Below are positions 5,495-24,244 of a stretch of DNA of 25,426 nt, piece after piece. The position numbers and the translations under genes were made by a program. The stretch covers positions 1-25,426 of the forward strand of contig MHJM01000010.1 in the NCBI GenBank assembly GCA_001818705.1, read 5' to 3'. The notes below the pieces were generated by a model. It was not told the origin of the DNA, did no database searches, and saw only the letters and a list, made by a program, of their open reading frames with translations. The number at the start of each line of letters is the position of its first letter. Position 1 is the stretch's first letter. The stretch comes from Candidatus Harrisonbacteria bacterium RIFCSPLOWO2_02_FULL_45_10c (GTDB lineage: Bacteria; Patescibacteriota; Minisyncoccia; UBA6257; 02-FULL-45-10c).

Positions 5495-5669
5495 AACCAA
5501 CTATCTCGCCAACCGCTGCTCCGGCACAGACAAAATAGATTCGCTCGCTTAACGGAATATTTCCACCCTAGTCGCCCAGCACCTTTGTCTAAAGGTGTTG
5601 GGCGGAAATATTCCTACTCGCTCATCATTTTGTAGCTATGTCTCCGCAATGTTGGCTCAATAGTTAGTT
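5495..5669. repeat. Palindromic element family A, copy A2
   Basis: Begins 6 nt after the secF stop. Stems GCCAAC/GTTGGC and GGAATATTTCC/GGAAATATTCC (5554-5564/5604-5614). Same 28-nt hairpin as A1 with 2 substitutions. Confidence 0.9.
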
Positions 5670-5689
5670 TCGCGTATTAATCTAAACGA

Positions 5690-5825
5690 GCTACCTATCT
5701 TTCGTGCGGCAATTTCGGAGCTCGGAAAAGCATGGTCTCCGCAAAGCGGAGTTTTCCGAGCGAGATATAGGAACGCCCCACCGCAGGAGTGGGGCGATTC
5801 CGGTGCCGGTAGGAAGATAAGTAGC
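5690..5825 (+). repeat. Structured element family B, copy B1
   Basis: Closing stem 5690-5703/5812-5825; conserved GTGCGGCAA, GCATGGT, GAGATATAG and CCGGTGCC. A 52-nt block matches B4 with 2 mismatches. Confidence 0.92.
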
Positions 5826-5834
5826 GAGCGACTA

Positions 5835-5863
5835 TTGACCTTAATTTTGAATTGTGGTATTCT
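5835..5863 (+). promoter_or_regulatory. Sigma70-type promoter
   Basis: TTGACC-17 nt-TATTCT with TG upstream of the -10 box; 10 nt before the ATG at 5874. Confidence 0.65.
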
Positions 5864-5873
5864 TTTATCAATT

Positions 5874-6923
5874 ATGAATGTCAGTGTTTCCAAGATAATT
5901 ACCAGCCTCCTTGCGGGACTTGATGCTAAAAAGCGTGAGGTTATCGAAGGCCGCTACGGGCTAAGGGATGGCGAGCAGAAAACCCTCGCTGAATTGGGAT
6001 CAAAATATGCCGTAACCAGAGAGCGGATCCGCCAGATTGAGGCAGGCGCTTTTGAAGACTTGCAGGCGGTCGCCGGCAAGAGCGCCGAAATCGGCCAATT
6101 CGTTAATTTGGTGAAGACCCATATTAAAAATATCGGCGGCGTTCGCCGGGAAGTTTTGCTTTTGAGCGATCTTAGAGCGATGATTGGCGATCCGAATACC
6201 GCTAATTTGAGCAGCAAGGTCAAGCTGATTTTGGAGGTGGCGGGAGAGCCGAAGTTTTGCTCGGATGGCCGGGAATTTCATTCTTACTGGTATTTAAACG
6301 AAGAGGACCGGAAAAAGGCGACTACTTTAGTGGCTAAATTAGCCAATTGGCTAAATGGCCGGAAAGACCAAGAAACCATCAGCCATGAAAAAGTAGACTC
6401 CTTTTTCAATGAGGCGATCAAGCCGCATAATTTGAAAGATCTGGTGGCCCTTAATTACGTTTCCATGTCCAAGCTTTTCCACGTCAATCACTTCGGAGAT
6501 TTCGGGCTTTCGGAATGGCCGAGCGTGAATCCGCGGACCGTCCGGGACTGGGTATATTTGGTTTTGAAAAAGCACGCCAAGCCGGCGCATTTTGAAAATA
6601 TCGCGGCGATGATCAATAAAGTCCGGAAAGATTCCAAAGTGGCCCATCCGCAAACTGTTCATAATGAACTTATTAAAGACCAGCGGTTTATTTTAGTGGG
6701 CCGGGGAATGTACGGTTTGAAAGAATTCGGGCTAATGCCCGGGACTGCCCGGGAAGTGATGTCCCGGCTATTAAAACAGCACGGTCCGCTTACTCCGAAA
6801 GAGCTTTTGGGATTGGTTCTGAAAGAACGCCTTTTGAAAAAGAATACGATTCTTATTAATCTGCAGAACAAGAAATATTTTAAACGCCTGGAAGACGGGC
6901 GCTATACTTTGCACCTCGTCTAA
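5874..6923 (+). CDS. Sigma70 region-4 HTH protein with C-terminal winged-helix (HARE-HTH/RNAP delta-like) repeats
   Basis: N-terminal RYGL...KTLAELG...VTRERIRQIE is a sigma 4.2 helix-turn-helix. No region 2 seen. C-terminal TVHNELIKDQRFILVGRGMYGL and FKRLEDGRYTL. Start moved to the ATG at 5874. Confidence 0.75.
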   Translation: MNVSVSKIITSLLAGLDAKKREVIEGRYGLRDGEQKTLAELGSKYAVTRERIRQIEAGAFEDLQAVAGKSAEIGQFVNLVKTHIKNIGGVRREVLLLSDLRAMIGDPNTANLSSKVKLILEVAGEPKFCSDGREFHSYWYLNEEDRKKATTLVAKLANWLNGRKDQETISHEKVDSFFNEAIKPHNLKDLVALNYVSMSKLFHVNHFGDFGLSEWPSVNPRTVRDWVYLVLKKHAKPAHFENIAAMINKVRKDSKVAHPQTVHNELIKDQRFILVGRGMYGLKEFGLMPGTAREVMSRLLKQHGPLTPKELLGLVLKERLLKKNTILINLQNKKYFKRLEDGRYTLHLV

Positions 6924-22935: not shown

Positions 22936-23815
22936 ATTCGCAATTATTATTGCCAGCGTTTTTATTCTGACGGATGCGGCGCTGTGGTACGGAATTATTT
23001 TTGACCGGGCAATTGCCGGTCCGGAGGTTTATTTCCTGGATGTCGGCCAGGGCGACAGCTCGCTGGTACTGCTGCCGGACCGCTTTCAGCGAGTCTCGCC
23101 TTTGGCGGATAATTTTCCCCATAAGATAAAAATTCTTATTGACGGCGGTCCGCCTAACGGCAAAGTGCGAAAAAATCTGGAAAATATCTTTCCGGCCAAT
23201 GACCGCTACATTGACATGGCGGTGATTTCTCATCCTCAGCTGGACCACTTCGGCGGTTTTATAGATTTATTTGAAAAATACGATGTCGGCATTTTGGTGG
23301 TCGGACCGGCCGCCGGCAAAGGCGTTTATTGGGAAGCCTTGCGGGCGGTAATTGAAAAACGTAAAATTCCGGTTATCGTTCTTAGCGCCGGATCGACGAT
23401 TACTTATGGCGAATCGCAGTGGGAAATTATTTCTCCCGATTCCGGCGCCGCCGCGAAAGATATCAATGACTTAGCTTTAGTGATGAAGCTGGAGAGCGGC
23501 GGCATATCCGCATTGTTTACCGGAGATATTGGAGCGAATACTGAAGTAGCGCTGGCGGCGGCTTACGATATTGACGTCGATATTTTAAAAGTAAGCCACC
23601 ATGGTTCCCGTTTTTCATCCAACGGCGTTTTTCTTAAAGAAGTCAGTCCGCTGATTTCGGCAATTGAAGTCGGAAAAAATAGCTACGGCCACCCGACGGA
23701 AGACGCTTTGCGGCGGCTGGCCGCCGTTAGCTCGCAAATCTACCGGACCGATGCCAATGGCCTGATTAAAGTTGCTTATCAAAATCAGCAGCTGAAAGTT
23801 TTTAGTGAACGTTAG
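22916..23815 (+). CDS. Stand-alone ComEC-type metallo-beta-lactamase-fold nuclease domain
   Basis: FLDVGQGDS, LIDGG, SHPQLDHFGG, LFTGD, LKVSHHGS, NSYGHP and RTD motifs. Confidence 0.88.
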   Translation: MQKPPYRFAIIIASVFILTDAALWYGIIFDRAIAGPEVYFLDVGQGDSSLVLLPDRFQRVSPLADNFPHKIKILIDGGPPNGKVRKNLENIFPANDRYIDMAVISHPQLDHFGGFIDLFEKYDVGILVVGPAAGKGVYWEALRAVIEKRKIPVIVLSAGSTITYGESQWEIISPDSGAAAKDINDLALVMKLESGGISALFTGDIGANTEVALAAAYDIDVDILKVSHHGSRFSSNGVFLKEVSPLISAIEVGKNSYGHPTEDALRRLAAVSSQIYRTDANGLIKVAYQNQQLKVFSER

Positions 23816-23826
23816 CATAATCTCAA

Positions 23827-23932
23827 TAAATCCAAAACCTCTCTTCGGCTGACCGCCTCCATTAGTAAACCCTTTCAGGGTAAATAGTTCCCACCGCCAG
23901 CCCGAGTCAGCCTCACAGAGGTTTTGGATTTA
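23827..23932 (-). repeat. Element family D, copy D2
   Basis: 16-bp outer stem 23827-23842/23917-23932 and 7-bp stem GGCTGAC/GTCAGCC. Minus strand TCGGGCTGGCGGTGGGA and AATGGAGGCG are identical to D1. Apical hairpin ACCCT-GAA-AGGGT. Confidence 0.88.
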
Positions 23933-23994
23933 ATATTACAAGCGACAGATTATCCTCTTCTCCGAAACCCGCGCAAATTTATGTAATACGGCGA

Positions 23995-24130
23995 GCTACC
24001 TGTCTGTCGTGCGGCAATTTCGGACCCAGCCGGAGCTTGGTCTCGCCAAAGGCGAGTCCGGCTGGGGAGATATAGGAACGCCCTACCGTAGGAGTGGGGC
24101 GATTCCGGTGCCGGTAGGCAGATAGGTAGC
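23995..24130 (+). repeat. Structured element family B, copy B4
   Basis: 14-bp closing stem with two G-T wobbles. Same conserved motifs and same length (136 nt) as B1. Confidence 0.92.
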
Positions 24131-24244
24131 GAGCGAGTTGTTGAGGGAAGAGGAAATCTGGAGCGGGAAGTTTCCGGACGAAAAATAACTTTTGGGGTTT
24201 TAGGGTTGTTTCTGAATTAAAAAATACTAGGTATACTTACCATT

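Follow-up and report, generated by a model that had tools for sequence, protein, structure and literature searches.

Nested and clustered fold-conserving repeat families in a Patescibacteria genome

Layout of the window

The window, i.e. the whole stretch of 25,426 nt that was analysed, is contig MHJM01000010.1 (positions 1 to 25,426) of Candidatus Harrisonbacteria bacterium RIFCSPLOWO2_02_FULL_45_10c, whose 546-kb genome is referred to as the home genome (G000). It contains three intergenic clusters at the positions given in an earlier sequence-only reading, and their members were assigned to genome-wide repeat families using blastn and nhmmer. Cluster 1 consists of A2 (5492-5678, minus strand), which lies between secF and a sigma-r4/HTH gene and bears a CAGCACC hairpin module at its apex, and B1 (5684-5828, plus strand, 152.6 bits), a family B three-way junction oriented head-to-head with A2. 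In cluster 2, element C (10673-10941, no strand assigned) spans 269 nt and is a near-palindrome whose terminal inverted repeats are conserved; it is located 4 nt off the efp start codon. It is followed by D1 (10954-11186, plus strand), a family D element with 26-bp perfect arms and an internal loop in which TCGGGCTGGCGGTGGGA faces TGGAGGCG. The apical domain of D1 is itself a family B element, B2 (11010-11149, minus strand, 129 bits), which is nested in reversed orientation, giving a composite denoted D[B]. Cluster 3 comprises D2 (23827-23932, minus strand), a short family D element with a 13-nt hairpin at the apex where D1 has a B, and B4 (23989-24133, plus strand, 149 bits). B4 lies inside a further outer hairpin, called ‘G-type’ (23951-24178, no strand assigned; arms ~23951-23974 and 24141-24178), which was read from the sequence and has no profile; this module also flanks other B copies and is present in the relative G007.

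Three further elements lie apart from the clusters. A1 (546-743; minus strand, this being the strand of the purine-rich loop) is a rod-like family A element located directly 3’ of tRNA-Lys (469-540), beyond the range of the sequence-only reading, and belongs to the same family as A2 and A3; family A was searched with the covariance model R2, which scored A1 at 173.8 bits. A3 (9917-10092, plus strand) is found between a T4 coupling-protein (T4CP) gene and efp. B3 (20293-20440, minus strand, 139 bits) is inserted antisense and in frame within mnmA (tRNA 2-thiouridylase; 19894-21117, plus strand). A ComEC gene is also encoded within the window. As had been proposed, Pfam searches revealed no transposase in the window.

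Element families and conservation of their folds

In the home genome, ~14 loci were found for family A, ~19 for B, ~12 for C, 8 for D and 8 for E, the last being an additional family beyond those described before. All families together amount to ~58 elements, i.e. an estimated ~1.7% of the genome (~58 elements of ~150 nt in 546 kb). The elements measure ~110-270 nt; A is a 190-nt rod and B a three-way junction. Element copies within this genome are old (70-82% identity) and hence give no sign of present activity here. B copies are mosaic, two copies having one arm in common and another arm not, which shows that arms were exchanged between B copies. A and B occur in sense orientation downstream of 16S and C-like copies within and before 23S, while C copies fill divergent promoter and leader regions, 4-30 nt off start codons. 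Constant terminal repeats had been reported as missing throughout; this applies to A, B and D, in which the closing stems vary, but not to C, whose termini are conserved inverted repeats of ~19-22 bp (GAACCTATCYCAATAATAG).

Rfam 15 covariance models at gathering thresholds detected only tRNA, rRNA, tmRNA and a group I intron, and none of the element families; a permissive scan of 5450-5880 gave nothing credible. No conserved promoter was found upstream of the elements, and no paper describing them was found in the literature. In RNA runs, no more than 9% of the 16S-A-B words were present, which is too little to read expression.

In each family the stems are copy-specific and the loop or junction nucleotides invariant; in A and B, these invariant nucleotides are accompanied by tandem G.A motifs at the base. 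For family B, 45 of 52 pairs showed compensatory changes, and 97.5% of the cells were paired compared to 68.8% in shuffles (0/500 reached the observed value); pairing fell to 34-45% when the partners were slid against each other. For family A, covariation was seen in 23 of 46 pairs. In DNA palindromes, such a signal can also be produced by intra-palindrome template switching without selection. Wobble pairs were used to assign the strand on which the fold is kept: across 83 copies of 13 genomes, G.U exceeded A.C by 113:14 on the model strand of B; the ratio was 17:3 on the G-rich strand of the D arms, whereas the 13:8 of family A was not significant. The wobble polarity of the D arms is opposite to that of the nested B, and no simple single-strand intermediate accounts for this.

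The opposite orientation of elements within clusters held true and was also seen in relatives. The A-B arrangement occurs three times in the home genome in the same layout. Of 28 D motifs, 15 are located within 100 nt of a B, and among the 15 D/B associations known from four genera, 14 are inverted (binomial P ~0.001). Nested D[B] composites of the same architecture were found seven times in four genera. Insertion into existing hairpins, as suggested before, was borne out with the apex as preferred site: D[B] was seen seven times and D[D’] twice, further cases being B’[B] and B4 within its outer hairpin. Elements tolerate the apical loops of others and use them as landing sites, and the resulting nested composites, such as D[B], diversify as units.

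The proposal of one modular system stood in part. The families are linked, with A occurring only together with B and about half of the D motifs lying near a B, but the shared motifs put forward for it are at chance level. TGCGG, suggested as common to A and B, occurs 1383 times in the genome, and the CCAGGAACGAGG core (CCAGGARCGA), which had been likened to the A core, is not conserved among C copies. Of the small caps said to recur, both AAA caps represent one helix of B1 and B4 with a compensatory change within family B, and hence are no cross-family evidence. Profile-versus-family searches detected no inter-family similarity except for a common apical hairpin, CAGCACCTTT..AAAGGTGCTG; A and B both carry this module, which also forms the junction of one A/B chimera. 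Likewise, the three clusters exist, but clustering in general is not robust: 8 pairs co-reside in the same spacer versus 3.4 expected under a uniform null (P ~0.03) and 8.7 under a length-weighted null (not significant), whereby the count left out ~4 further pairs because spurious ORFs hid them. A single autonomous element bounded by inverted B pairs was considered and rejected, as the enclosed ORFs are housekeeping genes (such as hrcA and gyrA neighbours).

Insertion into spacers and genes

Family B was detected in 39 of 61 relatives with 1-39 copies per genome (0.5-0.9 Mb). All 22 sampled genomes of the home family have it, and so do 17 of the 38 genomes that belong to other families of the order. 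Family A was found only in B-bearing genomes (19/19); outside the home family, all eight A-bearing genomes are among the 17/38 with B (hypergeometric ~5e-4). A B ‘master gene’ at a conserved locus was dismissed, since single-copy genomes place B at differing sites; the queA-dut site is common only within genus g3.

Orthologous loci were compared using the synteny block secD..orf299 of G007. There, the T4CP-efp spacer is 43 nt long versus 211 nt in the home genome, which contains A3, and the spacer between efp and the NTP-transferase gene is 60 nt versus 533 nt with C and D1[B2]. Both A3 and C+D1[B2] are missing from these spacers of G007, and relative to this syntenic genome the elements are insertions. 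No target-site duplications were present at the flanks of C, D1, A3 or B, in agreement with the sequence-only reading. Four groundwater/soil metagenome runs showed only repeat-induced contig breaks and paralogue mis-layings and were uninformative on empty sites. Relative to neighbouring genes, both element orientations were seen with an antisense bias (33:16).

Copies of B are inserted in frame in five genes: mnmA, a phosphoglucomutase-like gene, a cysteine desulfurase gene (iscS-like), alaS, and a 580-aa ORF without Pfam match. Four of these inserts are read in the same antisense frame and yield a common peptide; 42 of 68 copies have no stop codon in this frame. The mnmA insert adds ~42-46 residues to the loop between GHYV and KDQSYFLW. 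These data show elements persisting in frame within the surface loops of housekeeping proteins. Within genus g3 the mnmA loop is either filled or empty, and in G007 it is filled in the opposite orientation. Occupation of this loop in several genera could partly reflect an ancient insertion followed by loss instead of repeated insertion, and a tree of 79 B copies was too noisy to decide the orthology of the inserts. One intergenic B copy of the home genome is 95.5% identical to the mnmA insert of G007, compared to at most 82% between copies within the home genome. Taken together, covariation, the empty sites in G007, the five genes with in-frame copies and the 1-39 copies per genome bear out the earlier proposal that the elements are non-autonomous, structure-constrained insertions.

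Possible routes of mobility

Among known systems, Rickettsia palindromic elements (RPE) comprise about ten families of ~150 bp, many of which are located in frame within genes (PMC10969869). The analogy drawn to them in the sequence-only reading fits well with regard to in-frame insertion, multiple families and lack of a transposase. In both cases several palindromic families (here 100-270 nt) co-reside in one small genome, insertions are in frame in unrelated housekeeping genes and encode a family-specific peptide, copies also occur between genes and in an RNA gene (here 23S), and neither a cognate transposase nor a clear target duplication is found. Compensatory changes have been reported for RPEs as well. 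The hosts belong to different phyla, for which reason homology to RPE-1..10 is unlikely; the elements work like RPEs, by kind and not by sequence. Differing from RPEs, B is not a simple palindrome but a three-way junction, the junction nucleotides of which are invariant, the families form recurrent nested composites of fixed inverted polarity, and the wobble pairs are asymmetric between strands.

DDE-type MITEs, which include Correia/NEMIS, ERIC and QMITE (review PMC10969869), resemble C in so far as it is a full-length palindrome with conserved terminal inverted repeats in promoter and leader regions. Unlike in such MITEs, no TA-type or other duplication was established, A, B and D are without constant terminal repeats, and the DDE profiles PF13358, PF01609 and PF00665 (IS630, IS4 and rve) had no match in five element-rich genomes (G000, G007, G004, G009 and G005). 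IS200/IS605-derived elements and integron attC sites share strand-specific folded substrates whose structure is kept while the sequence drifts, and an orientation tied to the direction of replication, as seen for B in G007. The elements described here have no TnpA, TnpB (PF07282, no match) or IntI context and are not arranged as cassettes. In IS200/IS605 elements such as IS608, the active strand lies on the lagging-strand template; the orientation of B relative to the fork is the reverse, and in G007, 21 of 28 copies have their model strand on the lagging-strand sequence. As possible movers, Y1/RAYT, TnpB, IS110, DDE transposases (IS630, IS4, rve) and reverse transcriptase (RT) were all rejected, being either absent or uncorrelated with the elements.

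REP/REPIN-RAYT systems have in common with the present families structure-conserved extragenic palindromes, often in inverted pairs, for which recognition of a single strand is expected. REPs are imperfect palindromes of ~20-40 nt with a conserved head and form inverted doublets; the elements here (110-270 nt) are 4-10x longer, multi-branched and without a head of the GTAG/CGTC type. One Y1 HUH gene (Y1_Tnp, IS200-like; G000:C22:4934-5614, 226 aa, 39 bits, above cut-off) is present in the home genome between identical 19-nt hairpins, as RAYTs are between REPs. If its product mobilised the families as folded ssDNA, the strand-specific folds and the agreement of B orientation with the replichores in G007 would be expected. 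RAYTs are flanked by the same repeats with which they co-occur, but the 19-nt hairpin constitutes a separate three-copy family, which is unrelated to A-E and occurs nowhere else. Y1 was detected in 6 of 22 home-family genomes, though B is in all 22, and was found neither in G007 (31 B copies, 99% complete) nor in G001; 15 of 21 Y1-positive genomes carry B versus a background of 64%. Together with the reversed strand rule, this makes a Y1 mover highly improbable, and the REP/REPIN-RAYT analogy was abandoned as a mechanism. SINE-like retro-mobility, in which elements would be transcribed and copied back into DNA, is suggested by the G.U-tolerant fold, which hints at an RNA stage, and by RT genes (~320-370 aa) in G007, G004, G012 and others, one of them 1.4 kb from a D[B] composite (G004:C83). 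It is nevertheless very unlikely: RT genes are present in 13 of the 39 genomes with B and in 6 of the 22 without it, hence show no association with B, and none was found in G000, G009 and G010, which are rich in B; most copies are antisense to local transcription with no evident promoter, and one transcript cannot yield the opposite polarities of D and B in one unit. The phylogenetic profiling proposed before failed to connect HUH or RT genes to the elements.

Two further explanations dispense with a mobile system or with dedicated mobility. Functional structured RNAs kept by host selection, i.e. cis-regulatory leaders, terminators, processing sites or multi-copy ncRNA genes, agree with the very strong covariation, the strand-specific G.U excess, the invariant junction and loop nucleotides including tandem G.A, and the placement of A, B and C relative to rRNA genes, promoters and leaders. 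They are unlikely in view of the spacers lacking elements in G007, the mixed but antisense-biased orientation, the in-frame copies inside ORFs, the variable copy number, and the lack of a conserved promoter upstream or an Rfam match. Alternatively, the elements might have no dedicated mobility and result from template switching at the fork, breakage and repair of hairpin tips, gene conversion between copies and uptake of foreign DNA through the competence system, in which case the ‘covariation’ would be arm-to-arm correction. None of the transposase classes that were tested was found, nesting is always apical and inverted, B copies are mosaic, the A/B chimera is joined at the common hairpin, a ComEC gene is in the window, and a near-identical B copy exists in another genus, all of which would suit this explanation. 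Template switching, however, produces perfect Watson-Crick arms, whereas here one strand has an 8:1 excess of G.U, and neither the order-wide conservation of invariant unpaired nucleotides nor new insertions in unrelated ORFs without flanking homology would be explained; there is but a small chance that it is correct.

The clusters are probably pile-ups of several RPE-like, fold-conserving families of non-autonomous insertion elements with an unseen mover. They would represent ‘selfish’ palindromic elements of the CPR/Patescibacteria lineage, in which fold and not sequence is preserved. A trans-acting factor may recognise the folded single strand; it would not be encoded beside the elements and would not be a usual transposase, but either an enzyme that the host has at the replication fork or a protein that has gone unrecognised. 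That paired modules keep a fixed inverted polarity may result from the way one element enters the folded strand of another.

A more radical view is improbable, namely that nested composites represent a transposase-free, two-strand mode of DNA spread new to science, or that B and its partners are catalytic or protein-recruiting folds which insert themselves. D would fold on one strand and the apical B on the other, each being wobble-tolerant on its own strand only; at the replication fork, the nascent strand across from a folded hairpin would receive the incoming element. Such entry would account for the targeting of apices, for inversion without exception and for the bias of B towards the lagging strand.

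Understood as RPE-like insertions, the families add to Rickettsia a second system, independent and far richer, for studying how RPE-type elements move, and fixed inverted nesting together with opposite wobble polarity gives testable handles on this long-open mobility question. For metagenome-assembled CPR genomes, the elements matter to annotation, as they cause false ORFs, split domain matches and contig breaks. Although CPR/Patescibacteria genomes rank with the smallest and most streamlined ones known, fold-conserving repeats make up a sizeable share of the intergenic DNA here. With no recognisable transposase alongside, they reshape 23S rRNA, promoter regions and essential proteins (MnmA, a phosphoglucomutase-like enzyme, a cysteine desulfurase and AlaRS in relatives).

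Setting and census of the repeat families

The source genome (G000; 546 kb, 35 contigs, 85% complete) was obtained from groundwater metagenomes, and the window covers the first 25.4 kb of its contig C10. The genomes compared were metagenome-assembled throughout and genes were called as greedy ORFs. Ordinary housekeeping genes are encoded in the window (ABC transporter, cyclophilin, secD, secF, sigma-r4/HTH protein, VirD4-like coupling protein, efp, nucleotidyl transferase, P-type ATPase with a thiol/metal cluster, mnmA and comEC) and no transposase gene was found there. Mechanical ORF lists yield false or over-extended ORFs where B and D, poor in stops, are read through (10971-11930 and 5657-5893); the NTP transferase gene, for example, is listed as a 319-aa version with a TTG start, and its true start is the ATG at 11202. 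At 9865-9900, a perfect 18-bp palindrome and the T run after it overlap the coupling-protein gene at its end, with A3 just beyond; they resemble a bidirectional terminator. An 8-kb minus-strand block (11990-19799; DoxX-like, P-type heavy-metal ATPase, DUF1573/thiol-metal cluster) separates the NTP transferase gene from mnmA. The gap between these two genes is only about 590 nt in the relative G007, suggesting that the block is an island or reflects lineage-specific gain or loss.

The three clusters that had been claimed in intergenic DNA, A2+B1 (5495-5837), C+D1[B2] (10673-11186; B2 is nested in the apex of D1) and D2+B4 (23827-24178), were all recovered and belong to genome-wide families. Family A forms a rod about 190 nt long (14 loci in the genome), B has about 145 nt (about 19 loci), and C is a 269-nt near-palindrome (about 12 loci, fragments counted). 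The 8 copies of D have variable arms, a variable apex and an internal loop TCGGGCTGGCGGTGGGA opposite TGGAGGCG. Eight copies of an additional interspersed family, E, of about 150 nt lie outside the window, at G000:C20:6490-6679 and seven other loci, and B4 is enclosed by another recurrent outer hairpin. Families A-E and this hairpin comprise about 58 elements. B is present in 39 of 61 sampled relatives with 1 to 39 copies each, including 22/22 genomes of the home family.

C or C-like copies were also seen at RNA genes. On contig C16 (L068:8339-11040), the 23S rRNA gene contains an insert (about 410 nt, at model position about 280) in which a C-like element lies; a second C-like copy is found in inverted orientation about 260 nt ahead of the 23S 5' end, and a group I intron is located near the 3' end of the gene. 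The C copy at G000:C26:5122-5436 (L075) is situated among tRNA genes. Its 3' flank resembles a tRNA T-arm and also coincides in part with a weak tRNA match (30 bits), thus this copy may abut or interrupt a tRNA gene.

Folds and evidence of insertion

The folds are real. For B, the RNAalifold structure is a three-way junction built of six helices; compensatory changes were seen in 45 of its 52 pairs. Of all cells, 97.5% were paired compared to 68.8% in column shuffles (observed value reached in 0/500), and sliding of the partners left only 34-45% pairing. For A, 23 of the 46 pairs covary. Rfam held no family matching any element. In the 83 B copies compared, from 13 genomes, one strand has 113 G.U against 14 A.C, hence one specific B strand folds.

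The elements are insertions, not fixed regulators. Synteny was compared with G007, which is 99% complete and has a 608-kb contig. Gene order (secD-secF-sigma-unknown-T4CP-efp-NTP transferase-mnmA-comEC-orf299) is kept there, whereas the T4CP-efp spacer, which holds A3 (9917..10092, +), has 211 nt here and 43 nt in G007, and the efp-NTP transferase spacer, with C plus D1[B2], has 533 nt and 60 nt, respectively. The secF-sigma spacer of G007 contains another repeat, which is neither A nor B.

B is also found inside genes. B3 (20293..20440, -) lies in frame and antisense within mnmA (19894..21117) and lengthens by about 42-46 residues a loop which has 11 residues in solved MnmA structures. Across genera this loop is empty or carries differing inserts, with both states in a single genus (g3), and the G007 loop is filled by a B oriented opposite to B3. 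Measured from GHYV to KDQSYFLW, it spans about 6 to >120 residues across genera (relatives' loci L039-L067). It contains B, short low-complexity inserts or, in G007, a 'G-type' element plus B. Because length and contents vary across genera, the loop is an insertion-tolerant hot spot; the B-copy tree was too noisy to tell one ancient insertion from several. The G007 mnmA insert shares 95.5% identity with one intergenic B of the source genome, compared to ≤82% among within-genome B copies. Further in-frame B copies lie in a phosphoglucomutase-like gene of the source genome, between domains I and II, and, in relatives, alaS and a cysteine desulfurase gene. Four in-gene inserts encode a related peptide, all in the same antisense frame, which is without stops in 42/68 copies.

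Orientation and relations between families

The most interesting result of the analysis is the opposite-orientation pairing noticed in the sequence-only reading. Of 15 D/B associations, 14 are inverted, and the A->B arrangement is identical in 3/3. D arms show G.U to A.C at 17 to 3 on the G-rich-loop strand; in B copies nested in or adjacent to D, the ratio is 13 to 1 on the strand opposite to that of D. As D and nested B carry their G.U pairs on opposite strands, the inversion is more than a naming convention. Neither a locus-wide mutation bias nor a single-stranded intermediate of the whole D/B composite is able to give this opposite-strand wobble. In G007, with an origin near 290 kb (GC skew and gene strand), the lagging-strand sequence carries the B model strand in 21/28 copies (P about 0.01). 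The equivalent count places this strand antisense to co-oriented neighbours in 16/21; over all genomes antisense to sense is 33:16, to which G007 contributes most. The orientation rule of IS200/IS605 is the reverse of this bias.

The proposal of one modular system fared unevenly. The shared TGCGG, suggested as a family link, occurs 1383 times in the genome, and the C 'core' said to resemble that of A is not kept from one C copy to the next. Searches of family profiles against the other families were negative, and co-residence of elements in spacers was above a uniform but not above a length-weighted null. In favour of the proposal, A and B copies have a common apical hairpin module, and an A/B chimera (C35:2102-2259) has its junction exactly at this hairpin. 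The hairpin CAGCACCTTT..AAAGGTGCTG makes up the apex in several A copies and in one B copy and elsewhere stands alone with a T run, terminator-like (G000:C13:22121-22144; C29:12-38; window 629-652 and 5577-5600). B copies have a mosaic make-up: helix 6 but not helix 4 is common to B1, B4 and a C35 copy, and helix 4 but not helix 6 is common to B4 and a C19 copy. The families also co-occur, A being found only with B (19/19 A-bearing genomes). Outside the home family, B occurs in 17/38 genomes, among which are all 8 A-bearing genomes, from eight different families. D motifs lie within 100 nt of a B in 15/28 cases (four genera), seven of which have the same nested architecture as D1[B2]. As read from the alignments, the bases of A (purine-rich strand) and B appear to have a stem flanked by tandem G.A (YGA-stem...stem-GAR), despite differing stem sequence.

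Candidate movers and comparison with known elements

This genome contains one Y1 HUH gene (IS200/RAYT-like, 226 aa; G000:C22:4910-5649, L025:1200-1962). The same 19-nt hairpin (TACGAGATCCGATCTCGTA) is found on both its flanks, with a third copy within the ORF and none elsewhere in the genome. Y1 is an unlikely mover, since its hairpins are a private three-copy family and its presence does not track B. Five element-rich genomes, near-complete G007 included, yielded no TnpB, no IS110 and no member of three DDE superfamilies. Reverse transcriptases (RTs; roughly 320-370 aa) occur in 13/39 B-positive vs 6/22 B-negative genomes. A nested D[B] composite lies 1.4 kb from two RT-like ORFs in one relative (G004:C83:1729-5700), and the RT genes of G012 and G007 have D or B within 2-4 kb; given the observed element density, RT proximity to D/B elements was not significant. 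Inverted B pairs enclose housekeeping genes.

Literature searches found no paper on such elements in CPR bacteria. Of the two analogies drawn earlier, that to REP/REPIN-RAYT fails on the features tested, and that to Rickettsia palindromic elements fits well; these are the closest known kind (PMC10969869). Both comprise several families, insert in frame with a family peptide, have copies in RNA genes and lack a transposase. Unlike the Rickettsia elements, those described here fold in a more elaborate way, form recurrent nested composites and show a wobble that is strand-specific.
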